Below, piece after piece: positions 10,353 through 56,529 of a stretch of DNA of 64,000 nucleotides. Made by a program: the position numbers and the translations under genes. Within the stretch, counting starts at the first letter, position 1. Each line of letters opens with the position of its first letter. Source of the stretch: Hydrolagus affinis (Eukaryota); assembly GCA_012026655.1 (NCBI GenBank), contig JAAILG010000029.1:62001-126000 (forward strand), given 5' to 3'. The notes under the pieces were generated by a model. It was not told where the DNA came from. It searched no databases and saw only the letters and a list, made by a program, of their open reading frames with translations.

Positions 10353-13347
10353 GCTAGTCAAAAACCATCTTGCCTGCAGAAGCTGCTGGAATTGAAAACA
10401 AGCCTTTCATTCAGCCAGCGACTGGCCTGAGAGAGACACTATCTACTTTTAGAGTCGGTCATTAGCTCCAGGCAAGTTTCATCAATTTAAATTCAGTTAA
10501 TCAGGGATTTGGGTCCACTCAGTCTGATTTAAGTCAGTCTATCTGTGAATAGATCACTGGAATAACATTGAAATGGTTCCTAAATGAAAAAAAATCAAGA
10601 GCAGGTAATGAAAGAATTCCTTTAGGAGAAGTTGCAGCTAGAGATGGGTACAATACAGAGAAAGGTTTATCATGAAGAACATTGTTTGGGTCTTTTACAC
10701 AACCTTAGGGAATCAGTACATTTAAACAAAATTGTGCGGCTTTCTATTCTTTATCAGTGCAGAGCCAAATATCTCATTTCTGATTCCTTTTCAAAAGCAA
10801 TGAGATGGGTTTTCTGGTGTTATGAAATTTTGCCGACAGTAAACTGACACCTGAAGAAAGCCGAGCTCTACATGTGTCACTCCATTGAAGCCTTCCTGTT
10901 TCCAACATCTGACTGATGTCAGTAACGGATTGGCAATGTTGTCAGCAAAATGCCAATTAAGCTCATTAACTGGAAGGATTGATCCAATTAAAAGTGGCCA
11001 CATTGCAGTTTCCGTATACTTAAATGGCCTGAAGGCCTGTTCTCCATGTCCCTGGAACCAAAGGGAAGAATTATTGTACAATCCAACCGGAGCTCAGCAA
11101 TCTGGCATTTCCACAAGATCACAAGAGAAGTTTGGATGAAGAAACGCATGTCAGCCCATCTGATCTTACGCTTCCAGAATTTCCACCCTATCGCCCATCC
11201 ATAACAACATCAAGGTGTTTTCTTTAATGAATCCCAGCAGACTAGTTACCCACTCAATTCATTAATTACCTTTAGTTTTGTTGCCAATGTCTTTTAGTTG
11301 AAGAGTTGGAACATGAGCAGGAAGTTTGGGATAAATCTAGTTGCCACCAATTTAAATTTTTCTTAAAAAGACAACTGCTGTATCCAGGCAGAACTGCCAG
11401 GCACATCAGACTGAAACCTATTCCAGCAACATCGCACCCAGAATAACCAATATAGACATACACACAATGGATATAAGGTTATAAGAATATAAGGATATAA
11501 GATAGATTGGTACAATAGGAGAGTAGGATGGGTTGATGGTCAAGCAAATTGATAGACAGATGGTCCCATGGGAGCTGGAATCACTGGGAACTTGAACTGA
11601 CAACATGAAAACTACACATTTAACAAACTAGGGCTGCAACATTTGCAACAAAAAATCATGACTTTCTTACAGCCGTGCTGATTAGCCTTATAAGATTGGA
11701 CTGTCTTTCTCCTTTGATCAGCTCAGAAACCATGCCTTTACTGTTGGTCTCTGGTTATCACAAATACACGTGTTTGTAAAGCAGGTAAAGCAAGAATAGT
11801 GGCATTTCATGTGTTTGCCTGAACTATTTGTCTGGTGGGACGTCCTCCCAACGTGAATGGCGCTCTACAAGTGTAATTTCATTGTTTGCTGTTTTTGTGT
11901 TTGTGATTCCTATGCTAGTCACAAATACCATAAATGAAGTTTCAGACTATAGACCTTTGAGCTTCTCCTTTCTCTCATCATAGTTCATTCTGGTAACACT
12001 GGGCATCAATCTTATCACTCTTCTCAGCAACATCTTCAGTGCCTGTATGTGTTATTTATGGTTCTATGACATTAATACTCCTTGGTGTCTGTCATTGCAT
12101 TTGGTGCAGCATAACATAGATAATGCGCCCAGTCAGTAAAGGCATAACTCCCAACAGAATGAAGAAATCACAAATAAATGCAATTGTGTAAAACACTAAT
12201 CTAATCTCAGGGTTCACATGGTGGTTAGAAACGCCAGCAGCTGTATTACATGAATAAAGATGTTCAATGAATAAACTGCTGGATTGATGCGATAGAAACC
12301 GCTCACCAATTTTACTCATTTTAAAAAAAATGTCTGTGTTGCAACTCGCTGAATTTTTATTTCCCTTGTTTGTGGGATGTTTCCGGTATGGATTAGATGC
12401 CCTGTTGGTTGTTGTTATTAGCATAACAATGTATAAGGGGTAGTTTAAGAAGAAGCCATTCGGGCAATCAAACCAGCTGCTTCACAAACCATGTTACTCA
12501 CCCCATCAAGGACCCAACCCGAGTCCTCAGTTTACTGAGGAAAGCACTCCATAATGACATTATCAAAAGCAATCAAGCAAAAGTATTCATCCAACATCAC
12601 ACTTTCACTTTTCATCCCTGGCCTACCATATATTCAGATAGCTTCCCACCACCCCACCCCCCCCCCCACCAATCCCAGCTGCAATAGTACAGGATCCATT
12701 GTGTGCATGAATGTAATTTAATATCATTGTGTCCTTGAGTGTACATTCAATATCTAGAACCTCCAATCCTATTTCTAAATAGATGTTTATTCAGATCCTT
12801 TCTTTCAAGCATTTGTTCATTGCAGAGTTGACTGATTTTGCATGTTAGGGCGGTGTAGAGGGAGCTTGGCTCTCTATTACTCCTGCTATGCCTGATGCAG
12901 GAGCATTTGATGGGTGTCAAAACAGGGTGGGAATGTGTGCCACTCCTCAGTTCTGTTCCTGTTGAGCACTAAACATATAAAATGGTTTAAAATGTGTATA
13001 ACAAAGAGCTTTGCTTCACATTTACATTTTAAACTATAGAGACAACTTGCTTGAAGGAAAATCTAGTCACGTACGAACTACTGCAGGAACGAAAATAACA
13101 AGGACACTCAAAAGAGATGACCGAAAAGGCAGCAGCGTATAGCTGGAGGTTCTCTGGCATCTTCTGTTTGGGCGGGTGTGTTACTTTTGACAACAATCCA
13201 GTGCGTTTCCAGGGGTGACATCATCTTAATGTGTCCGGCAGCTGTATTTACTGGGGCATATGTGGCAGCCGATGTGACAAAGTCGCGCATGACAGATATC
13301 CTTGAGAAGGCAAGCATTGAAGGCTTCCCCAATTCCAAGTTATCTAC

Positions 13348-13520
13348 AATAATAATACTACTGCTTGCGTTTGATATAGCGCCTTATCACATCTTCGAGG
13401 CGTCTCAACGAGCTTCACAGGATATACTGTAAAGTGTCGGGACTGTGTACCTTGTGGGCGACACAGCAACGAATTGCGCACAGCAGTGTCCCACAAACAA
13501 TCATGGATTGAGCAACCAAA
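13348..13520 (-). mobile_element. SINE 3' half
   Basis: tttgatatagcgccttatcacatcttcgaggcgtctcaa...gcgcacagcagtgtcccacaaac. Confidence 0.8.
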
Positions 13521-15780
13521 TTATCATTATTATTTATCTATCTATCACCAAGGAGAGGAATCTTTGCCAACGGTGCTGTACTTCCATTCTACAGAGAGTG
13601 AATAAAAGGGCACGAAGCAATAATAATGTAAATGAACACACTTTTTGTGCTAAACTGGAAAAATATTTTTGTTTTTGGAAAAACAATCCCAAAAGCAGCA
13701 AGTGTGATATATCGTGGAAAAATATTGTGTAATGTTGTGTGTCTGGTTTTGTAATTTGGGTTTAAAATAATAATGGACAATTTAAATTTATATACAGCAC
13801 CTCTTTTCATATTGGAAATAAACGGCTCAAAGCCCTATTCAAAATAATGGGCCAGGGCCCTGGACTCATTTAAAAAATGATTGTGTTGGGAAGACAGAAA
13901 AGAGGATGTATATTCTGGAATGAAGAGATCAAATGGACAGAAATTCCTTCTGTACCCGATCCAATCTTCCAGATGATTTAATCTGCTCTGGTTGCTAAAT
14001 TTAATCAATGTGTCGCATGAATTTATCAATCCATGTAATTAAATTAACATGCGTGTGTATCGCCCCGCCATTCACTCTCCATTGCTTTAGGTTGTCCTCC
14101 GGATGTGAAATTTGTTATATAAATGCAAGTTGTTGTTGTGGTGGTAATAACTTCAAAGTAAAACCACATTAGAAATGTAAAATTCATTGGTGCACGTAAA
14201 ATGGAGAATTGTTTGCTTATCTTATCAAATGGGGAAAGAAGAGTCCTAGACATACTTCAGCAAAGGTGCTACTTTGAACAACATGAACAGAATAATTCCA
14301 TTCGGTTGCTTGCAAGGAAATGAAATCAAAGCAGTTTGCAGTTTTGAATCATCAAGTGCCATCCTGCCCCTGAGGGTAATCTGACCAAGCAATGCCACCG
14401 CCTTCAACTCTGGCTCCTGTGTGCAATATTTTAAATATAGGGTTGCCGGTACTTTTAACATGCTGTGGGCAATCTCTGACTTGCACATCAGTTCCTCTGT
14501 ACAATATATCCAAATTATTGTTCGTTCCCAACAAACAACAGAGTTTAATTCATGAGACATCTGTCCTTGTCACTGCTGTCTCTGGCCTCACTCTGTTGTT
14601 CTATCCTCCGGTGCATGACCCGATGATAGTCTCTGTTATGCATCCTAACTTGTCCAGGACACGTTTGTCTTGGAGCTGAGCCATTGCCCGGATTATTTGT
14701 TTCCTCTGACTATCATTGGTTTGGCAACAGTGAAAGGTACAGAGGAGGAATAATTGTCAGAGCTGCGCTGCCATCATTTGCTCATTTCTTGCAATTACAA
14801 CAAACAAAAGCAGGAAAGAGAAGTGTGGGGTGGGAGGAGAAATGAAGTGACGGTGATTTGAATGAGTGCTTACATTGGCAAAGCTACCCGTCAGACAAAA
14901 TGAAGCAAGTAATTAAACTATAATGTGCACAGAGAGAGCACAAACATCCCACAACGTTAATGTCACGACTGTTTGTGAGTGGCTCAGCAAGCCACTGAAC
15001 AAAAGAACAAAATGCCTTCAGACTGGTTCCCAGTTTTAGATGCTGCAGGGACTTGAATGTTTTGGTTATACTTATTTGCTGGTCCTATAATAAACATTTC
15101 ATTTAAATATTTTGTACCTTTTTGTGAAGTAATGAAACTGTGATTTCAGCTGAGTGAGCACTTGAGGTTAGCGAACCCAGTCTTCCAAAGAACGGATTTT
15201 TTGTGTTTTAGTACCAAGATATACTTTTTGAAATCCTAGAATTTTAGTGAATTCAAACAATGGAATTTTGCAATGATTCATCATATTTCAAACCATTCCT
15301 TCTCTTGAATTCGGCAGAAATTCCATAATGTTCCTGAAAAAGTATTGCAAGTTGTGCATGTCACCATGCATCTCTGGTGTTTGCAGGACAGAAGCAATAA
15401 CAAAGCTGTGGTTTTGTGAATGCGTTCATAGAGGCCAGCTGATAGCAATGGATCGTGTCTAAATAATGGAATACTTGGTCTTATGGCAATGTCAAGAACA
15501 GCACATCTCCACTCTGCACTGTTAGAAAGGGGACAAGAAAAAGAAGTATTTTCATTACATTTCAAATCTTTGGGGTTTATAAAGTAATTTTCATTTGTGT
15601 TTTGGTTATCACTGTTTGTTACATAGAGGTGGAGTGGTAAAGGATCAGATGTGGAAGTAACACAAGCAACTATTTAACTTGAACTATCTGTTCGGAACTA
15701 AGGACAATTCCAGAATTTGCAAGGCTGATAATAATAAATATGATAAAATATTTTTGCTCCTAATAGAGCAGTTGATAGTG

Positions 15781-20880: not shown

Positions 20881-21261
<381 letters not shown>

Positions 21262-22371
21262 TAAACGGTGGTGAGTGTAGAAAGCAGTATTCCTTGCACC
21301 TGATATATTTCCTAGAATGGCAAAACTTCTCAAAATGCTTTACAGTAATTGATGTTAAGTACTTTGGGATGACCTCCCGATGTGACAGGCACTATACAAA
21401 TGTAATTTTGTTGTTGTTCTTAAATATAATGACTGTGTATTGTAGGCAAACACAGCAATAAATTTGTGTATAGATTTTTTTACTCCCACCTGCAAGGTCA
21501 GGCAATCACACCAACATAGCAATTCTTTGTAAATCCTGTGATTCTCGGCACTCCTACTCCAATGAAACCAACTTAATTCTTTAGCAAGGATGAAAGGAAA
21601 AGGCCAATTTAGCTTGTTAAATGTCTACAGAGGAACCCCTGCAGCACTGCACAAATGAGAAGACGCAATGACCGAAAACTATTTCACTCCAAATAAGTTA
21701 GTGAAATGAAAGGGGGAGAAAATTTTGAACTGTAATGACACTTGTGCCTGAATTATACACAGGGAATTGTTTGAGGATACAGGTATTGTGACCATTAATG
21801 GATGTATCACAGAGGAAGGTGTTTCTTTTATTTTGCTTTTTATACAACTGACCTTTTATGCTAGGCATTTGAAACAATGGCGTCTTAAATGGTGTATTGA
21901 AACAACAGTACCTTAAGTCATGCAGTGCTAATTGTGAATGTGGTTTGCTCCCACGTAGCTTGCTCCCTTTGTGTGCTGTGGCTCTTTTCCCAGCTCGATG
22001 TATCCTTGCTTGACCTTACTTGAAGCTCCAGAGTACAAGGTGTGCAGTTGGGAATAACTCTGTGTTTTCATCAATGGCAGACAGGCATCACTAGTGCTAT
22101 CAGAGGTGCTGCCTGCTATCACTTGTTTAGAGCTTTATCATGTTACAGAATTGTAGCAGTGGCATCTGTGGATTTGGCAACTCTCCTTCAAATGGCTTGT
22201 GTAGTCCTTCTCCAAGAAAGTTGAAACTGGCCCTGATTACATCTCTAGAGTATTGATCAGAGATATTCCTATTCTGGCTGTGTCCTGCTCATGTGCACAA
22301 GGCATTTACAAAGGAAAATAAAATCTGTGCTCCATTTCATTAACTGTGCACCATTTCTTAATGATGGAGAT

Positions 22372-22830
22372 AATAACAACAAAATCACACTTGTATAGCG
22401 CATTTCATGTCAAGAGGACGTCCCAAGGCACTGGACAGTCATTGTTTCAGACCCGATTCAGGTGACGGGGAGAATGGAGAGAAAGGGGGGTATTTGGGGT
22501 GATCCACAGGGCTGTCGAAGAGGAGGGTCTTGAGGCGGGACTTCAAGAAGGCTAGGGAGGGGGTGAGACAAAGGGATTGCCGGATGGAATTCCACAGGTT
22601 AGGGGCAGAATGGCTGAAGGCTCGCCTGCCAATGGTGGGGCGGGGGTTATGGAGCAGGCTGGAGCCTGCTGAGCGGAGTGGGCAAGCAGGTTGGTAAGGG
22701 GTTAGGAGGTTGCAGAGGTACGGTGGGGTGAGGCCATGGAGGGCTTTGAATGTGAGTACCAGTTTCTTGAATTGAATCCTCTAGGTGATGGGGAGCCAAT
22801 GGAGTCGGGCGAGGATGGGTCATGAAGCTT
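22372..22830 (-). mobile_element. L2-type LINE 3' end (ORF2 C-terminus relic plus tail)
   Basis: Minus translation PILARLHWLPIT*RIQFKKLVLTFKALHGLTPPYLCNLLTPYQP, followed by RAFSHSAPNLWNS; typical L2 ORF2 end with an in-frame stop. Confidence 0.85.
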
Positions 22831-22863
22831 GGAGTGGTAGAGGATGATAATAATAAATATATC

Positions 22864-22967
22864 ATAATAATCCTTGCATTTTATGTAGCACTGTATCACC
22901 TCGTTGAGACGTCTCAAAGCACTTCACAGGGTATACAGTAAAATGGACTATATTTGTGGGTGAATCA
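22864..22967 (-). mobile_element. SINE 3' fragment adjoining an L2 fragment
   Basis: ataataatccttgcatttt...gagacgtctcaaagcacttcacag. Confidence 0.75.
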
Positions 22968-25381
22968 ACACATGACCCAACCCACCTTCTAGTGACATCT
23001 GATTGAATCCTATGTGACTTTGTAACATGCCCTGCCTGGAGTGCTACCAGCCTCTGTTTGAAAACATGATTACCACAAGCTCTACGCTTGGCAGTTCCTG
23101 CACATGTTTGGGTGACAAGCGTCCAAAGCAGGCTAGAGGCGGCACAACTCACAGCTCCAAACGTACCAGCGGCCTGGCTCATTGGCAGAACTGGAAGGGT
23201 CAGACTGGGAGCAGGTATTCTTCCCAATCAGCTCCCGCTAGCCCTGCAAGCCAAAGCCATAAGCAGTAAGATTGTCTTAGCTGGGCAAGCAGTAGAAAAA
23301 TTGCCAGACAGTACTCTCAATAGCAAATTTTGTGTTTTTACCTGTTCAAATTCCAGCAGTGCCTCAATGTACACTCTGGGGTGTCCAAGTCTTGGCTCTT
23401 GCCACCGGATGTCTGGTAGCTCACTAGCCAAAAATGAGCCATCTCTGTTTGTTCTAATCTCACTTTGACTTCTGCTCCACAGCTGCATTCCTGGTATTTG
23501 GAGGAATACAGTGGCTGAGTAAGTGGTTCTGAAGCATGAAATATTTATTATTGTAGAAGCATTGTCAGTGACTGATACGTTCTCTGAGAAAACGCATCGC
23601 TATTGCTCAGAAGCCGTATGTACAAATGCCGATTGCTGATGCAGCTTTATCTGCATCCGATTCAAAACTGTGTTGCCCAGATTACTAGAGAAGGAATTTC
23701 AGGTGTTTACAGAGTTGGCGTTTACAAAGCTGCCTTTTATAAGGACGGCTCAGAAAGTGAAGCAACATATAAACCAAGTCTACTAAATCTTTAATGAGGG
23801 AATTTTGCTGTTGCACATTCTTGGTCCACTCCAGTCGTTCCGCGATCTTATCCAATGAATGGCTAAGCTGTACATACTCGGAAAGCCCAGGTCCGTGCTA
23901 TATTAGCTGGTCCCAGCTAGCTGAGTCGGTCCTACATGCATTATAAGGTGGCTTCGCGGGCGCTCGGTTAAAGAGGGGACATCATCCAGACCTCCAACTC
24001 CGGATGGTAACACAACAAGCCCAGTTTGAGATGCGTGCATGTGCAAACCACTTTTTACATACGTGCAGAAAGGAAATGAGATGCAGCAATTTTTCAGATT
24101 ACTGCAGGCAGAGGAAGCACTGGACACATGGCGACTTGCACCACCGACTGCATCTTTCTTTATTTGGTAACCTGTTTCTGCCATTGATATAAAGGGACTG
24201 AATGCGGAAGGGATGAAAATCATCTTACTATTTACCAAGACTTCACTTAAAAGGTAAATCAATTCCCTTGCTGTTCTCATGATTTAAACAAAAAGGCTTG
24301 AAGATAAATTATTATTATAATGATAAAATAACCCATTCTTGTGATATAGCGTCTATCATGTTGGGTGGACGTCTTGAAATGCTTAATAATGATAATAATA
24401 AGCTTTACAGGAAAGTGAGGTGATTGTGTAATTTGTAGGAACAGGTTGTACAATATCTTTGTCAAATAAAAGTAAATCATGCTGAAAGTAGTAAGAATCG
24501 CGTCAAGAATTCTCCAAAGAAACAGTGGCTTCACATCAGCCATGGTGCAACTGTCCTACAATCCCTTTACTCTAGTTGCTGGAGAGATCTAAAGAGATTT
24601 GCCTGGCAGTTTGCCAAGCTGCATCAAAAAGGGTGGCAGATCTGGGCTTGTGTTACCAACAGATTGCCAAACAACTCTGCTAACTGTGCCTAGCCAACTG
24701 TGGGCATATTGATGCAAGGATGTAATGCGTTAAAGCCAATCTGCTCCGAACCAAATACACTGATCCCTCAGATGACGCTCTGCGTACCTTCTGTGTACCA
24801 CAAAGGTGTGGGTGGAGGAGCTGAAGGGGATCCCTGCTAGCCCCTAAGGCTAATAGTCATCCTTTCATGTTTTCCAGTTCAAGATTCTAAAGGTTTTGGA
24901 GCATAAATAGTGGAACAGAACTGCCAGATAGTAAAAGGAACACTATGTTGCTTTCGGGATTGGGTATGCTTTTATTTAGTGTGTTTAGATTATATATTAT
25001 GTTTGTCACTCAATCTTTCAATTGAAAAATCTTCTAGCAACGTGTTGTGTTTTACTCTTCCAGATGTAGATTCAATGTCAAACAACAACACAACACAAAT
25101 GGGAACAAGGATTGCAGGAGGACAGAATGGACCTGAATCAGTAGAACCATCATTTGCCTCGAGCAACGTACTGGACCCCTTAGCCCAGGGCTGGCCAATC
25201 CCTCTTAGAACAAATCTTTGAAGACTGGTTTTCTCCATGAAGCCAAAGCAGTAGTTTCAAGCCACTTCTTTGGGTTGTTGCATAAACTGCTGTGACTTGG
25301 CTAAGGCTTCCCGTTCTGCAGGGTTTTGAGTGCAGCGGAGAGCGGGTGTGTCAGAGCGAGCACTGAGCTCACTCAGTCCGA

Positions 25382-25600
25382 AAACAAAACACAAAATACT
25401 ACCGATGCTGGGAATCTGAAACAAAAACAAAAGTTGCTGGGGAAACTCAGCAGGTCAGGCAGCATCCATGGAGAAAGGAAAAAGAGTCAACAAAGAGTCT
25501 GACGAAGGATTGTAGACCCGAAACGTTGACTCTTTTTCCTTTCTCAATGGATGCTGCCTGACCTGCTGAGTTTCTCCAGCAACTTTTGTTTTTGTTTCAT
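25382..25600 (+). mobile_element. Penelope-like element end with inverted partial terminal repeat
   Basis: 75-bp inverted arms at 25417-25491 and 25525-25599 (2 mismatches). The sequence gatgctgcctgacctgctgagtttctccagca...tttgtttt resembles fish Penelope termini (recalled). A 9-bp direct repeat TCAGTCCGA flanks it at 25373-25381 and 25601-25609. Confidence 0.7.
25492..25535 (+). ncRNA. Minimal type I hammerhead ribozyme-like motif (degenerate)
   Basis: AAAGAGU-CUGACGA(25499-25505)-aggauuguagaccc-GAAA(25520-25523)-CG-UU-g-ACUCUUU. Helix I has 7 bp, helix II is imperfect, helix III is minimal/palindromic (ACGU). Confidence 0.55.
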
Positions 25601-26321
25601 TCAGTCCGAGCTCACTATTGCACAGTAAGTGTCTTCTTCTGCTGCCTCTTGGGGAGTGGTGTGGGGGCGGGTTGGGCATCCGGTGGTAGATGGATCTCTG
25701 TGTCATCTTCTCCAGGGTTGGCTCTGCTGGCCACTCTTACCACATGTACAAGAGTTCTCTTGCCCCACCCAACTCAAGTCATTAATCACACTCTATTTCC
25801 AGGGCCCTAATGAGATGCAAAAAGGAAAGCTTCATAAAGTATGTACAATTGATTAGATTCAACTACACACAAAGACCTTTTTTTTTTACAGCTCTGTTTT
25901 TTAAAATTAATTTTTAAATAACCCTGCAGCAAATTGTGTATTTTTTGCATCTCTGTGGCCGCTAACAATTATATATGAATAAATATCGCAGTTATTTAAA
26001 CATGTTCTGACTATTGTGCTTTTTTTTGACATTTGCGGCCAGCCATCACCGTGAGAAGCAAAGTCTCTCTCACTCTCTACACATAATGGGTCCCTAATTG
26101 CTTTGCCTCATTAGACTATGTTCCTCCTGATTCTCTGGCTACTTCTTTGCTCTGGGTTATCAACCTTCTGCAGAACCCCATCATTTGTGATTTTTCCAAA
26201 TAAAATAGGTTGGTGCGGGGAGAATCGAACGATAACGTGACCTTACGTTCAGCTGATCTTGTTGGTAACAATTCTCTAGTTATTCGCAGTTTGTGCAGTG
26301 TTCTGTCCTCGTGCTTTGAAT

Positions 26322-26440
26322 ATAATAATAATAATAACCCTTGCATTTGATATAGCACCTTGTCACATCTTCGAGACATCTCAAAATGCTTCACAGAATA
26401 TATGAAGTGAATTGACTGTATATTTTGTGGGTGAAACGGC
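26322..26440 (-). mobile_element. SINE 3' fragment
   Basis: (ata)n-cccttgcatttgatatagcacc...cgagacatctcaaaatgcttcacagaatata. Confidence 0.8.
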
Positions 26441-26644
26441 TTTGAAGATAAATGGCTATATCAAATCAGTTACGCATGCGTGCTTTTCCACTTCTAAAGC
26501 ATTATGAGTATTTTTTTGAAAACATCCCTTGCTTCTGGGATTTCTGTTATGATATGACGGTCTCTTTGGAGATTAGTGCGGGTTTTGTAAATCCTGTAAG
26601 ATGACAAGCTTGTCTCAGATGGAGCAATGTGTTCTTTCTTGCAG

Positions 26645-27043
26645 CTGTAAAGTTTGGTCGAATGTCTAAGAAGCAGAGGGACAGTCTCTATGCAGAAGTA
26701 CAAAAGCATCGCATGCAACAGCAACAGCGGGATCACCAGCAACAACCTGGTGAGGCGGAACCACTGACACCAACGTACAATGGTATCACCAACGGGCTGA
26801 CAGAACTGAACAATGACCTTAGCAATCTGTACATGGATGGGCACACACCGGATGTGGGCAAAGCAGACTCAGGAATGAACAACTTCTATTTGGACATTCA
26901 GCCATCGCCAGACCAATCTGGCCTAGATATCAATGGTATTAAACAGGAACCCATATGTGAATACACGGCTGTGCCAGATTTCTTTCCTTATTGCTCCTTT
27001 ACAAACGGTGAAACATCTCCGACTGTTTCCATGGCAGAACTCG
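26645..27043 (+). CDS. RORA: RORA coding exon, C-terminal extension and hinge ([22 protein letters not shown]...SPTVSMAEL)
   Basis: ttctttcttgcag| ... CTCG|gtaagt; 399 nt. The hinge [27 protein letters not shown] and [14 protein letters not shown] points to ROR-alpha rather than beta or gamma. Confidence 0.97.
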
Positions 27044-28734
27044 GTAAGTTGCTCTTCTGGTGTACAGGAATGTATTCATAGCACTGAGAAAGATGCACTA
27101 TAACAAATAGACAATGCAGTGAGTTGGTTTTGGAAAATGCACATGTCCCAGATCTGGATCAGGACCAGAACCTAATGATTTGTGCCATTGTATATTTTGC
27201 CAAAAACTGAACCATTAATTGTACTTCCTCATGCCATCGCAGGTGGAGACTCCTGACTCTTCAAATGAACTAGATCAAAAAATAATATTGAATAGTTGGA
27301 CGTGGAAGAGACTTTAGAAACCTCCCTCTTCTCCCCCCCCATTCCCTCCCCAGAAAAGACATAACCATGCACAAACCGTCTCCCAGAATCTATTTTGAGT
27401 GCATCTCATTGACCGGTTTATCAGGGATTTAACCAGACAACCTGAATGAAAAATAAATCATAAAATGTCTTTTATTTTAATCATCTCAGTTGCAGCTGCC
27501 ATCTGCTGGCAGCCTCCTCCCCTTGCCTTCCCTCGCCCGAACAGACTGTTGACCCACTGCCGTACGAGCAAAAGGTTAGCAAAAAGCAGCAAATAGCCCT
27601 GCTGTGAAATTTGGTGCCCTTTGGTTAAACAAACAGCAGACCTTTGTAAATATGATTCTTGTACAAATGTGGACTGAGATTTCGGCTTTGTGAATTCTCT
27701 TCACGTGCGATTTTTAAAAAAAAAATAGACTTTTTGATGGTGTTTTTGAATCTTGGTTTGGCATTTTATAGCAATAATCTTTGCGTTTGAAACGGCACTT
27801 TATCGCATCATTGAGACATCTCAAAGTGTTTCCCGCAGTATACTTAAGTAATTGACTTCACAATGTGTTGGTAATTTTGTCACTTTAAAAAAAATGCTAC
27901 CTTTGGAGTGGTGTATTATGTGGATTGCTTCAAATTTGTTTCTGGTCCTTTATATTTTTATGTTTCTATCACAATCCAGACATGGGCATTACCTCCTTTC
28001 ACACTCACCAAGATTTGCACAACACGAACAAGATATCCTCACAAAAAAAGGCTCTTCCTCTATCTGGCCCTTCACTGTTCCCAAGTCAATTCTGACCTCT
28101 CCTAAATGCCCATACTGTAAACAGGGGCCCTTGGGTGGTATGATGATCAGTTAGGAGAAATTTTGAGAGCTTCTTTGTCATTTATAATAATAATAACCCT
28201 TACAATTGATTATAGCGCTTTTCACATCTTCTGTTTATAATCAGTTGTCAAATTAAACGAAGTGAATTCAACAAGAAAATCCATCTAATGATGGCCATTT
28301 GTAGTTTTCAGTTCAGGGTCACTGCCCAGATAACTCATGTTTATGACTAAGTTGAGCATTCCCAATAGAAAATTCTCTACAGTGTTATTTGAATATAAAT
28401 TCTGATTTTACAGCTTGTTTAAAGCATTACTGAGCCCTCCTCCTGGTGCTAAGCACTTTTGATTACACTCTTTCTGTGCCAAGTTTTTTTTTGCTGCTTT
28501 CTATTTAAATGTCATGGACTGTTGAAATTATTTTGAAAGCTCATAAGACAAACTAGTTTGTCTTTCACCCTCCCCCTCTTTCTCTTCCCTTCTCTTTCTC
28601 TCCTTCTATCACATGGACTCGCAAGAGGATTAAGGACACTTGTTTACCACTATTAAATTGTCCATCCCTTTGTGTCTTGACTTTTGTTGTGACTTTATCT
28701 ATTTGCTCTTAATTACTGAGTATTTGTCCTCTAG

Positions 28735-28856
28735 AACACCTTGCACAGAATATTTCGAAGTCGCACATCGAGACATGTCAATACTTGCGGGAAGAACTAC
28801 AGCAGATAACATGGCAAACCTACGTTCAAGAAGAAATTGAAATCTACCAAAATAAG
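28735..28856 (+). CDS. RORA: RORA coding exon, start of LBD ([41 protein letters not shown])
   Basis: gtcctctag| ... AAG|gtagtg; 122 nt, the size and position of the exon lost in the mouse staggerer allele (recalled). Confidence 0.96.
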
Positions 28857-28971
28857 GTAGTGGGTTGGGGGAAGAAATGTATTTTTTGTTCAAAATCTAA
28901 ATGTGTTTCATTAACAAAACATTATTTTCTGAATCAAATCTCCAATTTAACATCATAATCCTCTTGTACAG

Positions 28972-29104
28972 CCCAGGGAGGTGATGTGGCAGTTGTGTGC
29001 AATCAAAATAACAGAAGCAATTCAGTATGTGGTTGAGTTTGCCAAGCGCATTGACGGATTCATGGAACTGTGTCAAAATGATCAGATTGTACTTCTGAAA
29101 GCAG
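28972..29104 (+). CDS. RORA: RORA coding exon, LBD helices 3-4 ([44 protein letters not shown])
   Basis: ctcttgtacag| ... GCAG|gtatca; 133 nt; nuclear receptor LBD signature; preceded by a 115-nt intron. Confidence 0.97.
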
Positions 29105-32100
29105 GTATCAAATCCTTTCCAGTTACTTTTGTGTTTCTTAGAAAGCCGCTGCATATAGTGCGCAGGGCCAACCATTGCAAGAGGCTTTTTTTTGATCTGG
29201 AATGTTAATATTTGAAACACATGGCATGCAAATGGAAACAGAATAACTACTGGGAATTTTGAAAAGTGAACTGTGGTAGCATATCAGCAGCATTGTTAAT
29301 TTACGTGCAGGATCCTGAACACACATGGTAGGCATTGTGCGGGATATTGTTGACAGCCAGTACTTTGTGTTTCTAAACCCACTCCACATTGGAATTAGTG
29401 AATCCAGTCTGATCCCGTTTCATCACCTCCTGTAAAGCTTTCCAAATGCTGCACCACATGACCGCTGTGAAGCTCCAAGCGATAAGTGAACGTACTCGTG
29501 TATACTGCAAAGCCAACAGCTGTGGCATTAGATACCCAAACACTTGCTAGTGAGTAAATCATGGCCCTTGCATTTTTGCAATGGCCGATTTCTACGTCAA
29601 ATGTTTTTTTTTACCTAGTTTCGTATTTTCCTCCTTTTTAAAAAAAACAAAAAGTCTGTCTGTGGCCAAACGACATGCTTCCAGGCACTTGTCAGTTGCC
29701 ATGTACAGATTGATGTGTCCATTGCTTGTTTTTTATTTCTATTCCCAGTTTCCATTCTTGTGATTTCTCTCTAACAGCCCAGGTCAGAAGCTTGACTCGT
29801 GGGGAATCGCAGGCACGTACCCATGTCATGCTCCTCTATGGCCCAGCACATTTGTACAACAACCCACTACAGCACAGGTCTTTAGCAGAATTCTGTCACC
29901 ATCCATTCTGACATTTAAACAGAAAGCCCCAAAATCTGTACAAGTAGCACATTCCCATCCAGTTGATTTCTGCTGCAGACAGCAACAGGACTGAATGTTC
30001 TGCAGCTTTGGTTGAGGCTATCAGGATTATTGGTAGGAAGGAACATTGGCAACTATGATTAGAAATAAGCCAATGAGGTATTTTTTCTGATTGTACAAGG
30101 TGTACAATTTTAAAATTATTATGCTACTAGATTAATGGATAAATCGTAAGGTCTTGCAAATTATCCACAAGTTGTGGCTGACCGTAAGAATTGCGCAGGA
30201 CATGAAAAAGACCCATTGGTTTGATCTGTGATATAGACTCTTTACACCGGCTATTTTAATGGGAATCTATTTGATTCATCGCATGATAATTCACTCATAC
30301 GTTAACTGCCCCAAGTGGAGAATCAGAAGTCATTGATCCTATCATTAAATTTAGTTCCTGGCTCCATCAGCTTTAAATTGTGCCTCTTAGTCATTTCTTT
30401 TTGACAATAACACATAATTCTTGTTTAATCCGTCCCTTCATCATGACCCTTCATTATTTACAAACGTAGCAATTACCTTCAGAAGGTTTAGCCTCACGAG
30501 AGTATATTATGTCTCTGGCTCAGTGAAATAAAACCCTAGTGCCACCTTCACCATTTTTCCTGTCCCTAACACTATTTAATTTTGATGGCACTGATTTATG
30601 TGCCTCCCTCATTGACTTGGGTTTATATTCTATGGATCTATATACCCAGATATTGAATTTTCTGAAGTCACCCCCTACCTTAGACAGCAAGATGATTTAG
30701 TTTACAAAGTTGAGATTGCACAGAATCATGGAAAATTATTAAACTCAGCCCTAATGTACATCTGGTCATTTTTAATAATAGCAGAAAAAAAGGTTCCTAA
30801 TTTAGACTACATTTGAGAATTGTTGACAATTCAGTGCAATCCTACATTTTAAGACAAATGGCCTTTTTTCATTTTGAACTACATCGATAAATTCAGTAAT
30901 TAAAAAAAAATGTTGTGGTAACCCTGCTGAGTTAGCTACATACTTAAACTGACCGCAGAAGTCATAATCTTTCCTGTTCGCCTGCCATTTACCATCCCTT
31001 TGAGATCCTACAGTTACTCAGAGAAATTGTAAGTGTCTGAAATGATTTAATAGACATGCAAACATAGTCCTACAATTGCCAGTTTTGACTCACAGGATTC
31101 TCCCCCAACAGAGCTGTGTACATGTTCAGCTTCACTATTAGTTAGTGATGACAGACAGGTTCAAAAATCCGCTCAAGTAATATTAGCTGTTCATTAAATT
31201 AGATTACCTCTAGCCTGTGGTTATTGGATGGGGTCTCTTCAAAAATGGATGTACGGCTCCTTATATCCCTTCCATGGAAGGAATACTATGGCTTCTGTGA
31301 CTGCAGTTTGTTGAGGCGAGCAGAATTGTCTGACCCTCAAATAGTCCTGTATAGACAGATCTTCAGCAGCTCAGACCTGCAACAATTGCAACTCCTGGCA
31401 CAATATTTTAGTGACCACATTATTTAATGACTCACCATTGCTTTCATTGTCTGAGTTCATTTAATGGAGAATTAAGATGATTATTAAAGGCAGCGAGCGG
31501 GTGGGTGGGCTTAGATTAGATGTATAATAGGAGGCTCAGCGTGTGGCAGTGCCAATTGTGGTAGCATATGATGCTCTCCTCGTTGCTACCTCCTGTTATC
31601 ACAGAAGAATCAAAAATGGTAGTTGCATCAATGAGAATCTGATCATCTACATGGCAACTTGCAGAATCCCTGGAGCAGCAGAAACGTGTGATTTGCTGCT
31701 AGCTTGGGTTTAAGCATGATGCATGTGGGAAGTGGGTGGCGGTGGGTTGTTTGTAGAACTGAGCATCAATTCTGTCACATAATCAACTCCACCTTAAGTT
31801 TAATCTGTTCAGTTTATAGGAAGAATTTAAGGAAGAGAAGTTACCATAGTTTTCTTTCGGTCTATTGTCATCCAGTCTTGTATGCTGTCAGACTAATTCA
31901 TCCAGTGCTATCAATAAGCACCCATTCATTCATTTCAGCGAGTTAACGACTCAACAAACAATAGTCTGTGAAGAAAAGGAATACTAAAATTATTCAGAAT
32001 TCATTTTCATATATGTATTTTCCGTTAGGAGAGACATTAATAGGAGTTTTACAAAGCATTACCAGGCTTGTCATTTTTAAATTCAGAGTACACCTTAAAT

Positions 32101-44660: not shown

Positions 44661-44679
44661 GCCAACAGCCTTACATAGG

Positions 44680-45001
44680 ATAATAACAATCCTTGCATTT
44701 GTTATAGTGTTTTACACATCTTCTAGATGTCTCAAAGCCCTTCACAGAATATACTGTGAAGTGAAGTTAATTGACTGTATGTTTGTGGGCGAAATGCGGC
44801 AGCCAATTGCGCACAGCAGCATCTCACAAACAGTCGTGGATTAAGTGACCAATTGTTTTATTGTTTAATGTTTTTTGTGAGCGATTATTATCAGGCGTGT
44901 GGAGTAAGGAAACTTGCCCAAAGTATCATCCTGCCTGGAATCGAACCCAGGTCTCTCGCTTGCAAGCCGAGTGCTCTAAACACTGAGCTACAGGACTCCA
45001 C
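44680..45001 (-). mobile_element. Near full-length tRNA-derived SINE (Deu-like core, L2-type tail)
   Basis: Minus strand head gtggagtcctgtagctcagtgtttagagc...gggttcgattcc (A and B boxes); core gctgtgcgcaattggctgccgc; tail aaatgcaaggattgttatta. Confidence 0.85.
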
Positions 45002-45462
45002 ATAGTCAAAGGATAACATAAGATGACAGATTGGACCAAACAGGGACAAAGGTAGATTATCATGTGGATTTATCCTGTGACATCAGGTACTATATCAAAT
45101 GCATAATAAAACATGCAATTGATATAGTGCTTTCCTGTCATTGAGATATCTCAAAGAGCTTCACAGGATAAAGATGGCAACAGCTCAGCAATAGCTCCCT
45201 TCCTGTCTAGCTGGTGTTTATTATATTCTTCACAAGTGCTTCTCCTCGACCCTATCCCTAGTCCCGTATCACAGGCTTTTCCGCCCCCCATATCCCTCAA
45301 CTCAGTTCTGTCCTAACCGTGTGTGCATGCAGTTGTTGTTCTTTTTTGACACTGCCGGCCCCAAAACTGACTACAGCAGAGAATCGCACACCCAAACCAA
45401 TCATGTGAATCACGTCATCTGATTCTCAGCCGTGAAAGGGCAGGTGATGAAATTTGTTTGTG

Positions 45463-45760
45463 CAGTCCTGTAAGGGGTTAGAGCACTCGCCTCCGAAACG
45501 AGAGACGTGGGTTTGATTCCTGGCCAGGGCAAAATGAAATGTTGGACAAGTTTCCTTTCTCCACAAGCCTCCGTTTACCTAGCAGTAAGTAGGAACCCGG
45601 TTGTGAGTCGATTAGCGGATCACTTTTTCGCGGGTAAAAGTTGCTTTAATAATAACAACCAAATTTATAATAAATTGGTTATTTAAACCACAAATGTTTG
45701 TGGGACTCTGCTGTGTGCGATTAGCTACCGTGTTTCAGCCACAAAATATACAAGACATGA
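45463..45760 (+). mobile_element. Same SINE family, diverged copy with truncated tail
   Basis: cagtcctgt...ggttagagcactcgcctccgaaacgagagacgtgggtttgattcc ... tgtttgtgggactctgctgtgtgcg. Confidence 0.75.
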
Positions 45761-45771
45761 TAAGGTATCCT

Positions 45772-46053
45772 GTAGAGTCCTGTAGCTCAGTGGTTAGAGC
45801 ACTCGCCTTACAAACAAGTAGACCTGGGTTCAATTCCAGGCAGGGTGAAACCTTGGGTAAATTTCCTTACTCCACACTCCCAATAATAATCCCTCCAAAA
45901 AAATTGGTGACTTCAATCCACGACTGTTTGTGGGACACTGCTGTGCGCAATTGGCTGCCGCGTGTCACTTCACTTTACGGTATATTCTGTGAAGCGCTTT
46001 TGAGACGTCTAGAAGACGTGAAGAGCGCTACATCAAATGCAAGGATTATTATT
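45772..46053 (+). mobile_element. Same SINE family, near full-length copy abutting the ICE2 CpG island
   Basis: gtagctcagtggttagagc (A box), ggttcaattcc (B box), Deu-like core, tail aaatgcaaggattattatt. Confidence 0.85.
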
Positions 46054-46290
46054 ACATATCAAATGTAAGGATTGTTATTATAATATATCAATGTAAGTAC
46101 AGTATAGTGTATTATTACTGTAATGGCAGACTATTCCGAGGGATAGGGTTTAATTTCCCCGCAGCTGCTGAGCTGCTCTGGTGCTGTAGGTGGCGCTGTG
46201 TTGCGGTGTGCTGCTGTGAGCGGGCGGACCGTTCCTCGCCGGCCCCGCTGTTCCCGGGGATGTGTTTTGCCGCTGCACCGCTCGAGGGCC

Positions 46291-46537: not shown

Positions 46538-46659
46538 TTGACGAGGGGTCTGATGTGTGGGGAAGCTCTTGGGGGGGAGGGGGAAGTATAGGTGCCCATT
46601 TTGACTCGGAGGGAGGGTTTGTCCCTGCCGTGATGGTGCCATTATCAAGTGATCAATAG

Positions 46660-46757
46660 ATATACAGTCAATTCACTTTACAGTATATTCTGTGAGGCGC
46701 TTTGAGACGCCTCGACGATGTGATAAGGTGCCATATCAAATGCAAGGGTTATTATTG
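46660..46757 (+). mobile_element. SINE 3' fragment in ICE2 intron 1
   Basis: atacagtcaattcactttacagtatattctgtgaggcgctttgagacg...atcaaatgcaagggttattatt. Confidence 0.8.
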
Positions 46758-48479: not shown

Positions 48480-48835
48480 GTGGAGTCCTGGAGCTTAATG
48501 GTTAGAGTACTCGCCTCGCAAGCAAGAAACCTAGGTTCAATTCCCGGCAGGGCTAAATATTGGGTATGTTTCCTTACTCCACATGCCTCTGTTTACCTAG
48601 CAGTAAGTAGGATCTGGTTGTTAATTCAATTGGCGGATTGCTTTTCTGGGTGTAATATATATTTTTTTAATTTGATAATTCAATCTGCAACGTTCATAGG
48701 ACACTACTGTGCGCAATTGTATTTCGCTCTTAAAATATACTGACAATTCACTTTACAGTATACTATATTAAGTGGTTTGAGATGTCTTAAAAATGTGATA
48801 AGGCACTGTATCAAATGCAAGGTATTATTTATTAT
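48480..48835 (+). mobile_element. Same SINE family, full-length copy in ICE2 intron 3
   Basis: gtggagtcctggagcttaatggttagagtactcgcctcgcaagc ... atcaaatgcaaggtattatttatt. Confidence 0.85.
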
Positions 48836-48921
48836 ACGTGTGTAAGCCCCATATTAAGTCATTAATTTCCAGTCACTAATGTGCACAAGCAAGAATGATA
48901 ATGCAGAGTTGTCTCTTACAG

Positions 48922-49041
48922 GAACTGAAGAAAATAGTCTGTATTGAAACAGCAGAATTCATGAAGTATCTGCAGAATGTTGCCAGAATGTGTGCTGAGG
49001 ACTACGATTTCATTATTCCTGACTCACTCCGCTACGCTGAG
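48922..49041 (+). CDS. ICE2: ICE2 coding exon 4 (ELKKIVCIETAEFMKYLQNVARMCAEDYDFIIPDSLRYAE)
   Basis: gtctcttacag| ... GAG|gtattt; 120 nt; EF.K.LQN.A..CA.DY motif. Confidence 0.9.
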
Positions 49042-49927
49042 GTATTTGCTCTGCACGTTTACATTGGGGGAAGGTACTGTATTACCTCTTCGTTTTTTGT
49101 AAGCTTGAATCCCAGATTGAAAGAAAAAGACTGGCCGAAGTATCCATTGCCTGGACTCACAACTCACTGATTTTTCAACACCGTTTTCACCTCTGACTTG
49201 TATACAGACTCTATATTTATGCTAAAGTAAGGTTTGGATTTCAGGAAAAATGCAACAACACATTGCATTGATATAGCTCCTTTCTCATCGGGAGGATGTC
49301 CAAGGCGTTGAAAATATTGCAATTGCAACTCTATTGAAACTCCCTTTTGTTGACTTCATTGACTTCCAGAAAGTTTTTTGATCTTTTAAATAAATGAGAA
49401 GCTATTGGACGTATAGTGGAATCCGAGATATCAGCTGTAATGTGTCCTCACTCCATCTCCAATGGTTAATGCCTGTTCCAATTGAAAGAGGAATGGGTAT
49501 TCTCAACCAAATGATTAATTCATCAACTGTCTTGTCAGATGGCATTGAAAAGGAGTTCTTTTGGGAATGTCTGTTAGGACAGCATAGTGATAGCCCATGT
49601 AGTTCACTGACACTCGCAGTTCCTATGAGTTCCTGAAAAACATGTGCAGACCTACCTCTGAAAGAGCTGAGTGTGTTTAACAGCAGTGGCAAGGATTGGC
49701 CCACAACAAGCTATTTCTGTTCTGCTGTTTAATATTCATTAAAATTAGTTGATCATCATAATTATTTCCCCCTTGCATATAATGCTGTATTAGAAATTTG
49801 CATGTGATTTCTTGTCTTATAGGAACAAATGAAACGGCACTGCTGAAAAGTGGATTTATCAGCTCTAGATTTATCTGTTGCAAATGCAATTGCAACATTC
49901 ACTTATTCACTTTCACTTTGTTTATAG

Positions 49928-50062
49928 GATGTTTTAAGAGAATGGAGTAATGCTGTGAAGAGATATCCACAGTATTATTGTGTACAAGATATTACAAGCA
50001 TTATGGGAGGCAAATTCATCCCAGATCTCGAGTTCAAATTGGAAAAGAATCTATTCAGCATG
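49928..50062 (+). CDS. ICE2: ICE2 coding exon 5 (DVLREWSNAVKRYPQYYCVQDITSIMGGKFIPDLEFKLEKNLFSM)
   Basis: ctttgtttatag| ... ATG|gtcagt; 135 nt; phase 0-0; translated manually. Confidence 0.88.
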
Positions 50063-50336
50063 GTCAGTTTCACCTACAAAATATACAAACAGTGCATTTA
50101 AGTAATGATAAGCCTAATGACCTCATCTATTGCTTTACATAATTTATCATGATATTGTCTTATCAGTGATATTAAGAAATGTATTGCTCTATGCCATTTG
50201 CAAGAAAGTGAGATGTTTCATGTAATTGAATAATATGTATTTGCAGGTTGTGATGTTTGTACAGATCCTCTGATTGAAACATGAATTCAGTCTTCAAAGG
50301 TTACTGATTGATTCATTTGTGTTTTCTGATTTTCAG

Positions 50337-50459
50337 GGGAAGAGTGGCTTTTTGAAGTTGCCAGTTTCAAGATTTCCGTTCAAGATTGCGTTATCAACAG
50401 AATACAAACACATTTCTTCTTTTGCTTCACCCAAGGAAAGGGATTGTATTGTGAACTCT
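50337..50459 (+). CDS. ICE2: ICE2 coding exon 6 (GKSGFLKLPVSRFPFKIALSTEYKHISSFASPKERDCIVNS)
   Basis: ttctgattttcag| ... TCT|gtaagt; 123 nt; phase 0-0. Confidence 0.85.
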
Positions 50460-50871
50460 GTAAGTCTTGTGTTGACGTAATGGAGGCTACAGTGTTCTGC
50501 AAGCTGCTATAGAAATAGTACATTACATCCACATTGTTACCAAGGGGTTTATTTTGATTATTAGATTTGATTTAAATGGAAGATGGTAACATGACTTGTT
50601 TCACTTATTTCAATAGATTTCAATAGATTTTGATGATTACATTGCAGCGGGTCTCTGAAGTATTTGAGTTGAATTTATTGACTGACTGTTTCCATGTACT
50701 CTTTACTCATTATTATTATTATTGGATTATAACTCTTCATAAAGCCCATATCTGTCGAAGGTTTAAACATTGCTTTCTTGTCTGGCAGTCGCTCTATTTG
50801 TCTCATACTTTTGTAGAGATTCAAGAAAAGGTTTGTTGTTGCTTTCTTGAGCACAACAACATTCTTTTCTT

Positions 50872-50982
50872 CGATTGCGCCCACAAAATATACAGTCAAT
50901 TCACAGTATATTCTGTAAAGCGCTTTGAGACATCTCAAAGACATGATAATGCGATATATAAAATGCAAGGATTATTATTATT
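50872..50982 (+). mobile_element. SINE 3' fragment in ICE2 intron 6
   Basis: cgcccacaaaatatacagtcaattcac...aaatgcaaggattattattatt. Confidence 0.8.
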
Positions 50983-51278
50983 TTGGTTATTAGTGTGGTT
51001 AATCCTCTGCTGAACATTCCGCCTAAACTTCATATATTACATACTATTTCTTCATCCTGGTTCTCAACCAAGTCAAAGTAAAACAAATTATATCAAGTTT
51101 GATTTAATTGAGAACCAGACCAATTTATTGCATCATCTCGTATTATTAATTTATTTTATTTTCTACAAAACATATTAACTCTATGCCTGTACTATGGGTG
51201 TTAGTCCTCTGCCCTGATTTGTTAATATATACTCACAAAGTGTGACTATGTACAAACATCCCTGTGCTTTTGTTTCAG

Positions 51279-51438
51279 GATATTATAAATGATAGAAATG
51301 CAGCAAAGCTTAGTGTGAAGTATGGTGCTCAGTTCTGCATGACAACCCAGGCCTTGTATACCCTATTAAATAACCATGGGCCAAACTATACAGAGCAATG
51401 GGAGATTCCAATTTGTGTGAAAACCATCAATGACAAAG
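51279..51438 (+). CDS. ICE2: ICE2 coding exon 7 (DIINDRNAAKLSVKY...LYTLLNNHGPNYTEQWEIPICVKTINDK)
   Basis: cttttgtttcag| ... AAAG|gtacgt; 160 nt; conserved TLLNNHGP.Y.EQWEIP. Confidence 0.92.
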
Positions 51439-51818
51439 GTACGTTTTGCTGTTCAGGACTACAGACAATTTCCAGCCTGAGTTTTTTTTTAAGTCTTACC
51501 TATATTCCTCTCTACTCCCTTATAACAATCTGATTCAGGATTTAATCTCCCCATTTGCTTAAAAATCAACTTCCTAAAGTTGTACTTTTCTATTGTAAGT
51601 TCGACTTTAAATTTAATCATATTCTCTGACATTATTTCCAAAGTGCCCTTTTCATCCCCTACTTGTACATCACATAATCTGCAATATTATCATCTTTCTG
51701 ATATGCTCTGCAACTATTTGGGTCCAAGAACAGTCAAGTTATGTTCAGAAACACATTGTTGCTCCTTTGCTCTCACTATAATCCTTACTCTAAAGGAACC
51801 CATAATGATCCCTGACAA

Positions 51819-51877
51819 CCCTGATGCTTTTATTTGAGAATTCAATTGATCCCTGATGCTCTTATTTGAGAATTCAA
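51819..51877. repeat. Tandem duplication, period 32
   Basis: ccctgatgct(t/c)ttatttgagaattcaa at 51819-51845 and 51851-51877. Confidence 0.9.
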
Positions 51878-52677
51878 ATTAAAATCTAATGTTGTATGCT
51901 GTGATGTCCTATAACCTTAATTTTGCTTACATTAACTTTACATTCTTTCCACCTGGTCAGGTCCTAATCTAGATTTGTCTAACTTCATTAACTTCTTTAA
52001 TGTAAACAAGTTATACACCTTCCTAATTTATCCTTTCTTTCTCTGCAAATCAATCTATAATCCTTTTAAACTGACCACCGACTTCCATCCATTACTTAGT
52101 CAAGTTTCTGTGATATCCACAATGTCATAACCTTCCTTTCTGGCTTGGATCGCAGACGAACAATTTTATTCCTAAAAATCATGGCATTTCTTTCTGAAAT
52201 GTTGAGGAATTCCTTATGCTGCTGTTCTGTGCTTTGAGGGGTACTATATAAATGCAAGTTGTTTTTTCTGTTCATATCCCTAAACTAATATCTTTGACTA
52301 TAATCCTATTGCTACTCACTGTTCTTTCAAAAAAATCTTTGAATCCTGTTTTTTGTTTTACTCCTTCTTGCTTTCCCAGTTTACTTTTCCTACATTTAAG
52401 TAAAAGTAGGAACAACTGATATTCCTGAATCTTAACTTGGGCTCTTCAGTTGAAAACTTTTCTTGCCAAATGTACACTGTTTAATTACGCATTTTTTAGT
52501 CATATTCTGAAGTGTTTGGGAGTTTTTTTCACTAATTGTGCTATCAGCGTTTGGCCAGCGGGTGGTGCCAGATTTATTTTAAGTTCTGAAATGGAAGCTT
52601 CTGTATTTGATGGTATTGGATGCCGAGCCATTTATTTGTACTAAATATGTATAAATTACCATTTCTTAATCTTTAGG

Positions 52678-52755
52678 CTATTCTGTGAAGCTCTTTCAGA
52701 CACCTCAATACCATGATAAGTCGCAATATCAAATGCAAGGATTATTATTATTATT
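52678..52755 (+). mobile_element. SINE tail fragment in ICE2 intron 7
   Basis: tattctgtgaagctctttcagacac...atcaaatgcaagg(att)n. Confidence 0.75.
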
Positions 52756-56320: not shown

Positions 56321-56529
56321 GTAAGCGTTTTTAATATTTTTTTTACTTTGTTAGACACTGTGTCCCTCGTCCCAACTGCTCCACAATTGGCACAGACCGT
56401 GGTTTTAGACACTATCACCCAAAACTGGAACTCTGGCTAAATGCCTTCTCCTTGCCCCTATGTTGTCCCTCTTCAGATCACACCTGAAATCCTTCATTTT
56501 CAACCATGCCTACAGTCACCTTTTGATTT

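Follow-up and report, generated by a model that had tools for sequence, protein, structure and literature searches.

A hairpin with a minimal hammerhead motif in an intron of RORA is most likely a short insertion of a Penelope-like retroelement with an inactive ribozyme

RORA, a regulator of circadian rhythm and development, carries in one of its introns the letters of a hammerhead ribozyme enclosed in a long hairpin. Does this ribozyme cut the RORA pre-mRNA, with the hairpin acting as a lock upon it, or are ribozyme and hairpin together the trace of a mobile element? The locus lies in a window of 64 kb (the whole stretch of Hydrolagus affinis DNA that was analysed, 64,000 nucleotides), to which all positions refer. 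The host gene was identified from its exons: an exon for the ligand-binding domain (LBD) had ROR-alpha as its best match in a PDB search (E 1.6e-25, vs 2e-19 for beta and 1e-17 for gamma), the best PDB match of the second LBD reading frame was likewise ROR-alpha, and the exon for the second half of the DNA-binding domain (DBD) matched Pfam zf-C4 (E 9e-19). The RORA exons are all on the + strand, and the intron between the DBD and hinge exons spans 21137-26644 (5.5 kb). These exon matches confirm that the hammerhead core is sense to RORA and lies between its DBD and hinge exons, as a sequence-only reading of this DNA had claimed. The hairpin is about 1 kb upstream of the intron acceptor (Table 1).

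The hairpin in the RORA intron is real. Each of its inverted arms has 75 nt; the arms are 97% complementary and flank a 33-nt spacer, which is what had been described earlier (73 of 75 positions paired). Two positions lack a Watson-Crick pair: one is G25441-T25575, which in RNA would be a G.U wobble, and the other is G25470 x A25546. Folded as RNA, the arm hairpin has an energy of -145.5 kcal/mol (z = -19.6), and none of 200 shuffles was equally stable. The loop letters also read as had been stated, i.e., AAAGAGT-CTGACGA-AGGATTGTAGACCC-GAAAC, followed by GTT-G-ACTCTTT at the start of the right arm. On both sides of the unit stands the direct repeat TCAGTCCGA, already noted as resembling a target-site duplication (TSD) of 9 bp; this TSD was read by eye, and the automatic TSD finder gave a neighbouring 9-mer. 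The pattern CTGANGA-N(8-30)-GAAACGTH has one match in the 64-kb window and is found in 3.5% of 200 base shuffles.

Table 1. Features of the RORA intron insertion and of the neighbouring exons.
Feature	Position	Strand	Basis or remark
RORA exon, second half of DNA-binding domain (start approximate)	20991..21136	+	Pfam zf-C4; contig of a relative covers 20991-21136; donor site
TSD, 5' copy	25373..25381	+	9 bp, or as many as 13 if one mismatch is allowed; sequence
Penelope "tail", about 35 nt, inverted copy only	25382..25416	-	in long copies, extends the sense 3' end
Left arm, inverted 5'-truncated element end	25417..25491	-	ends at core position +27; covers cut site and helix I 3' strand
Putative junction filler AAAGAGT, repeats left-arm letters	25492..25498	+	replaces native CCCCAGTY; helix I register off by one base
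Hammerhead core C3-A9 (CUGACGA) and unpaired A typical of minimal hammerheads of Penelope-like elements	25499..25506	+	sequence; as described in PMC4209133
Helix II with A25509 x C25517 mismatch	25507..25519	+	G at this site in most of the family
GAAA core and GUU triplet, with palindromic ACGU where helix III would be	25520..25527	+	nominal cut after 25527
Right arm, sense copy of element end	25525..25599	+	ends at +101, without tail
TSD, 3' copy	25601..25609	+	sequence
RORA hinge exon (end approximate)	26645..27043	+	acceptor site; contig of a relative 26644-27043; ROR match of exon start
Frames with two RORA ligand-binding-domain exons	28713..29205	+	best PDB matches ROR-alpha

All letters of the catalytic core are intact in the RORA-intron copy: C3-A9 are at 25499-25505, helix II at 25507-25519, GAAAC at 25520-25524 and GUU at 25525-25527, in a position numbering aligned with that of PMC4209133. 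The letters are those of the minimal type I motif: C3UGANGA9, G12AAA15.1, U16.1-H17, the pair G10.1-C11.1, an extra base after A9 and a palindromic 15.1-16.1. Thus, the earlier claim of a minimal hammerhead stood as far as the letters go; the Rfam check that had been proposed for it did not support it, as the covariance models gave no hammerhead match for the RORA-intron copy at E up to 10. A native copy of the family likewise had no hammerhead match, so the Rfam miss says little. The Rfam matches that were found are to hairpin-shaped miRNA models only, far below the gathering scores. Identity as a miRNA was rejected, since these are generic hairpin matches with scores under the gathering thresholds.

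The defects of the motif lie around this core. The native letters before the core, CCCCAGTY, have 377 exact matches in the genome and form a helix I of 4 bp, AGUY/GACU. The AAAGAGT that stands there in the RORA-intron copy has, together with the core, one match in the genome, this copy alone, and was probably templated on the left arm as a filler of the junction. With this filler, the 5' strand of helix I lacks one base compared with the native strand, so that either C3 is paired into an 8-bp helix, and is thereby lost from the core, or one base too many stands after the cut site. An "extra G" before helix I had been listed as a weakness; in native copies, too, the 3' strand of helix I begins with that G, and the real defect is the missing base on the 5' side. 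There is one contiguous helix I pair in the RORA-intron copy, whereas at least four are present in 59 of 100 copies and at most one in 15 of 100. In an active hammerhead, helix I is contiguous with both C3 and N17; here, the 8-bp helix requires a paired C3. An active hammerhead also has a stable helix II, for which the value here is +1.1 vs -5.6 kcal/mol in the native form, and the mismatch noted earlier in this helix is indeed present. Helix III is absent. A search for a second copy as dimer partner found none within the 64-kb window, and there is one exact core on the contig.

Small hammerheads of Penelope-like elements (PLEs) reportedly cleave as dimers, this being the subject of one paper by its title. 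That minimal hammerheads often need to dimerise had been given as a caution; in the assays described in PMC4209133, single minimal hammerheads did not cleave and dimers cleaved little. According to the account in PMC11167929, mutating C3 abolishes the activity of a PLE hammerhead, and the PLE hammerhead of Anolis needed protein. The RORA-intron motif and its family are like the minimal type I hammerheads of metazoan PLEs (as presented in PMC4209133) and PAc of Anolis (as presented in PMC11167929) in the CUGANGA core, the extra base between 9 and 10.1, the G10.1-C11.1 pair, the palindromic ACGU without helix III and the 4-bp native helix I. Unlike these, the RORA-intron copy has the one-base defect of register in helix I and the A-C mismatch in helix II, and the native helix II of the family has 5 bp, rather than the 7-8 bp given for them there. 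The hammerhead in the RORA-intron copy is predicted to be inactive. The CPEB3 HDV-like ribozyme and the intronic hammerheads of amniotes are found at single loci, conserved and active as monomers. The RORA-intron copy is like them in being a sense ribozyme motif in an intron (see PMC6765202 for the conserved cases) and unlike them in that its fold is damaged and that it belongs to a set of hundreds of young repeat copies.

How would this RNA fold? In ViennaRNA, pairing between cut site and left arm has a probability of at least 0.99, and folds of growing prefixes have the left arm capture the 3' strand of helix I once position 25532 is transcribed. In these models, the left arm does sequester the cut site and the 3' strand of helix I, as had been suggested, and the 75-bp hairpin is predicted to form in the RORA pre-mRNA. 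When the left arm is removed, hammerhead-shaped folds with C3 free have probabilities of 7e-7 and 7e-9 in the RORA-intron copy, vs 4e-3 and 1e-2 for the active register in native copies (n=2); the active-register fold is thus predicted to be rarer here than in the native copies by a factor of about 10,000, as figures of a secondary-structure model that is blind to tertiary contacts and proteins. The RORA-intron ribozyme is damaged independently of the left arm.

Such folds bear on the idea of a regulated switch, in which the hairpin would be opened by a helicase or through editing by ADAR, so that the ribozyme could cut the RORA pre-mRNA. A near-perfect duplex of 75 bp in a pre-mRNA is a typical substrate of ADAR. 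The insertion is also common to a DNA set that is about 1.3% diverged, in which contigs enter the element from both unique flanks; a search for an empty allele, in four runs from an organism farther removed, gave no contig reaching the insertion site, and no empty allele was found. Intronic ribozymes for which regulatory roles have been proposed do exist (among those treated in PMC6765202). Against the switch stands a mimic of editing, in which A was replaced by G at 25, 50 or 100% of the A's of the arms: at each level, all 20 folds kept the cut site paired, G being an imperfect stand-in for inosine. The opening by ADAR that had been put forward was therefore not reproduced, even with all of the arm A's replaced. 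Opened by whatever means, the ribozyme would still be out of register and without a dimer partner in the 64-kb window, and the decay of the arms equals that of the family (identity 97.0% vs a median of 96.7% in 39 copies that are locked in the same way). No RNA run was listed as carrying this locus, and the runs that were compared are of other organisms or dominated by repeat copies. Excesses of A>G and T>C are also present in a DNA-like run, so these excesses are no evidence of editing. We regard the switch as extremely improbable. The same holds for a broader form of the idea, to which we give hardly any weight: once unwound, a hammerhead in bulged register would, with a retroelement protein or a partner RNA, cut the RORA pre-mRNA, so that retroelement activity tunes RORA, while caging lets ribozymes persist in sense introns throughout the genome. 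Were the switch real, a developmental regulator would carry a ribozyme that derives from a retroelement and cleaves conditionally.

The hairpin could instead have a minor side effect of its own, being edited or diced, or slightly changing how the 5.5-kb intron is spliced, an effect that intronic inverted repeats can have. This hairpin is very stable and lies about 1 kb upstream of the acceptor, and RNA runs from other organisms contain much sequence of the family. Hundreds of equal hairpins throughout the genome and the miRNA scores far below their gathering thresholds speak against such an effect, which we consider unlikely.

The origin of the unit can be traced through longer copies. These run upstream into a pyrimidine-rich UTR and then into the end of an ORF, the peptide of which has 2998 candidates in the genome. 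In most of 30 loci that were picked by this peptide, the core lies about 190-310 nt behind the C-terminus of a GIY-YIG domain, and in most of them both core and tail follow the ORF end. At one of the loci (L066), the frames read, in order, an RT-like part, thumb/HTH, a CxxxxCxxC linker and GIY-YIG. Its GIY-YIG scores 25.3 bits with Pfam PF01541 (cut-off 22.6), its RT-like part has an Atlas feature score of 0.96 to clusters with RVT_1 on 26-27% of their members, and its translation has, upstream of GIY-YIG, a YIDD motif that we take to be the RT motif. The RT half of this frameshifted copy had no Pfam or PDB match, the best PDB matches being chance (E at least 0.086). The L066 translation also has the CX2-5CxxC linker before GIY-YIG by which Neptune and Nematis are recognised; these PLEs are defined, as set out in PMC8557442, by a Zn-finger-like linker between RT and GIY-YIG. 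The order of domains in the parent ORF, as read in the frameshifted copy, is likewise that described there for Neptune/Nematis PLEs. Judged by this ORF, the parent is probably an endonuclease-positive Penelope-like element with a linker of the Neptune/Nematis type. Since the RT-like part, the linker and GIY-YIG are linked in an ORF, the unit is read as the 3' end of a Penelope-like element, and the Penelope-like origin, at first a suggestion, is borne out by the linkage of the core to the RT/GIY-YIG ORF.

The family is abundant. The genome is that of a vertebrate, and the repeat would seem similar to repeats of cartilaginous fishes. In the species' own genome (1.11 Gb) there are 1630 candidates, and both arms were present in all 40 that were scored, these having been selected for likeness to the RORA-intron copy. 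A 34-nt core with two variable positions allowed has 829 exact matches, compared with 0 for the reversed control. Architecture was examined in 100 of the 829 matches, namely those that come first when sorted by contig; they comprise the RORA-intron copy and 98 fetched regions, with one head-to-head pair counted twice. An inverted copy is adjacent in 59 of the 100, and in 43 it covers the cut site. Of 55 paired copies, 52 have the tail of about 35 nt at one end and not at the other, either on the inverted copy (29) or on the sense copy (23). A TSD of at least 8 bp is present in 64 of the 100 copies vs 9 of 187 control intervals, the family TSDs being mostly 8-16 bp vs 3-7 in the controls. A tight pattern gave 87 further closely caged copies, in each listed one of which the junction reads differently; thus, each is an independent event.

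The RORA-intron copy has the marks of an insertion by an endonuclease-positive PLE, i.e., an inverted 5'-truncated neighbour, a tail on one end and a short, variable TSD. PLE insertions are described in PMC8557442 as having an inverted 5'-truncated copy and a tail of 30-40 bp at one end, and Pen2a_Av of Adineta vaga is reported in PMC3846280 with an inverted pLTR, a 31-bp tail and a 9-bp TSD; the hammerhead in the pLTR is a further likeness to these accounts. Unlike Pen2a_Av, both copies in the RORA intron are very short (about 100-110 nt) and without an ORF, and their junction has a filler of 7 nt. The "cage" is the published insertion product with inverted pLTR and one-sided tail. Since inverted copies are common in the family, frequently over the cut site, the cage is not an adaptation of RORA. 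The remark that Penelope insertions often have an inverted partial repeat was correct, both here and in what is published for PLEs; the idea that a lock explains why the insertion is tolerated found no support, as the left arm is the usual by-product of insertion.

A MITE-like, non-autonomous palindromic element that moves as one unit of 219 bp would also explain why many copies are alike in length and have a TSD and both arms. Such an element would hardly account for a central junction that varies by copy and is unique in the RORA intron, for a tail that switches sides (29 vs 23), or for the gradual transition from single-arm and long ORF-bearing copies to short ones. Because the junctions are heterogeneous, the MITE reading was rejected; its probability is minute. 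It is highly probable that an abundant Penelope-like retroelement left the unit as a short insertion, with two truncated 3' ends head to head within a TSD, and that its minimal hammerhead is inactive and of no consequence for RORA. As one of hundreds of such insertions, the single locus matters little.

Even so, caging could act as a filter throughout the genome: an uncaged ribozyme would cut the RORA pre-mRNA, and insertions would survive in sense introns only because the antisense arm locks them. The near-complete pairing of the cut site with the left arm agrees with this, and tandem hammerhead retrozymes are reported to be under-represented in Xenopus introns in the account given in 10.64898/2026.07.22.740005. 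The direction of host transcription was approximated by T/A skew and the skew of T-runs vs A-runs in repeat-masked 10-kb flanks, a weak proxy that was calibrated on the 64-kb window alone (0.00 to +0.06 in eight bins, genes on the + strand) and mixes intronic and intergenic copies. In the first sample of 99 copies, 24 locked copies were sense-like and 18 antisense-like, vs 26 and 31 of the uncaged (Fisher p = 0.31); the uncaged copies with intact helix I had a run skew of -0.094, in the direction that the lock predicts (nominal p = 0.011, one of 9 tests). A replication with the prediction fixed beforehand took in 60 further copies, all with intact helix I. Of these, the 51 that are uncaged had no bias in run skew (+0.003, one-sided p = 0.61) or T/A skew (-0.003, p = 0.20), with 23 sense-like and 28 antisense-like, and the 9 locked copies leaned antisense, opposite to the prediction. 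Among copies with intact helix I in this sample, uncaged ones were the commoner (51 vs 9). Over both samples, the skew proxy gave no reproducible link of caging to orientation, which had been expected as an enrichment. A strong orientation filter is not supported, and a modest effect may exist. The RORA-intron copy is, moreover, defective even without the arm, and caging is the default product of insertion. A lock that decides which insertions survive is thus very unlikely.

For an insertion of the Penelope-like element, the following course is proposed. The GIY-YIG nuclease of the element would nick both strands about 9-13 bp apart, and reverse transcription would start at two internal sites about 35 nt apart, at +134 and +101, giving one copy with the tail and one without it. 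That two internal RT start sites define the tail is described in PMC11167929. Both copies would end at or inside the hammerhead and be joined through the 7-nt filler, for which the arm would have been the template. Even without the hairpin, little cutting is to be expected of the ribozyme, as a lone monomer without helix III, with helix I out of register and helix II mismatched.

The 5' ends in the family indicate in what state the RNA was copied. In 29 arms that were chosen by downstream sequence, regardless of the core, 18 of the 5' ends lie between -6 and +21, at the front edge of the hammerhead or within it, one at +27 (the left arm in the RORA intron), one at +32 and one at +46, and 8 are farther upstream; there is no pile-up at the cut site (+30). 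The 5' ends of the inverted arms in the first sample also peak, at -4 to +1. Reverse transcription thus usually passed the cut site, which suggests that the RNA templates were uncut. The family 5' ends would be a genomic record of templates uncut at the time of copying, in line with the in vitro work described in PMC11167929, in which PLE insertion uses unprocessed RNA. This record at the level of the family is more useful than the RORA locus itself. The cluster of 5' ends at the front edge of the hammerhead could reflect a transcription start, a splice acceptor or stalling at structure. The native CCAGTY resembles an initiator, and the native front edge also has letters like those of a splice acceptor, a pyrimidine tract followed by CAG. 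In D. virilis, an intron is described as ending at helix I (PMC4209133).

Among the Penelope-like family copies at loci L092-L219, the 5′ ends cluster at the hammerhead's front edge, between -6 and +21, in sense and inverted copies alike, and there is no peak of 5′ ends at the cut site (+30); the RNA templates of these copies seem to have been uncut. The clustering at the front edge could be due to a transcription start, a splice acceptor or stalling of the reverse transcriptase. In three copies (L039, L041 and L042), helix I is directly preceded by a long pyrimidine tract with a terminal CAG, resembling, in its sequence, a 3′ splice site. For the Penelope of D. virilis, PMC4209133 describes an intron that ends at helix I.

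The fillers at the junctions between inverted and sense arms often repeat nearby arm letters (L102, L108, L120, L172 and others), several times over in the filler of L172. Such repeats suggest that the template was switched repeatedly, or that ends were joined with inserts copied from a template. Two long copies (L266 and L267) lie on contig C4288 in opposite orientation, about 33 kb apart; in both, the native sequence extends about 1.6 kb upstream.

Within the target site of the RORA-intron stub, a short local repeat, GAGCTCACT, overlaps both copies of the target site duplication. Shortly 5′ of the hinge exon lies an intronic segment that is retained, at about 90% identity, in contigs from an organism that is more distant; it may be a conserved non-coding element. 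The exon-like frames downstream of RORA presumably resemble ICE2/NARG2, the usual neighbour of RORA; Pfam gave no support for this. The window also holds copies, 70-85% identical, of a second short repeat family that is much more abundant than the Penelope stub and unrelated to it.

Coordinates of further features in the window
Feature	Position	Strand
Local repeat	25365-25373, 25608-25616	
Candidate conserved element	25931-26124	
Exon-like frames	48880-57700	+
300-aa ORF among these frames	55432-56334	+
Second repeat family	1311-1430, 13345-13540, 22850-22960, 26321-26440	
Second repeat family, further on	44670-45000, 45460-46070, 46655-46756, 48480-48846	
Second repeat family, continued	50875-50990, 52680-52765, 54017-54396
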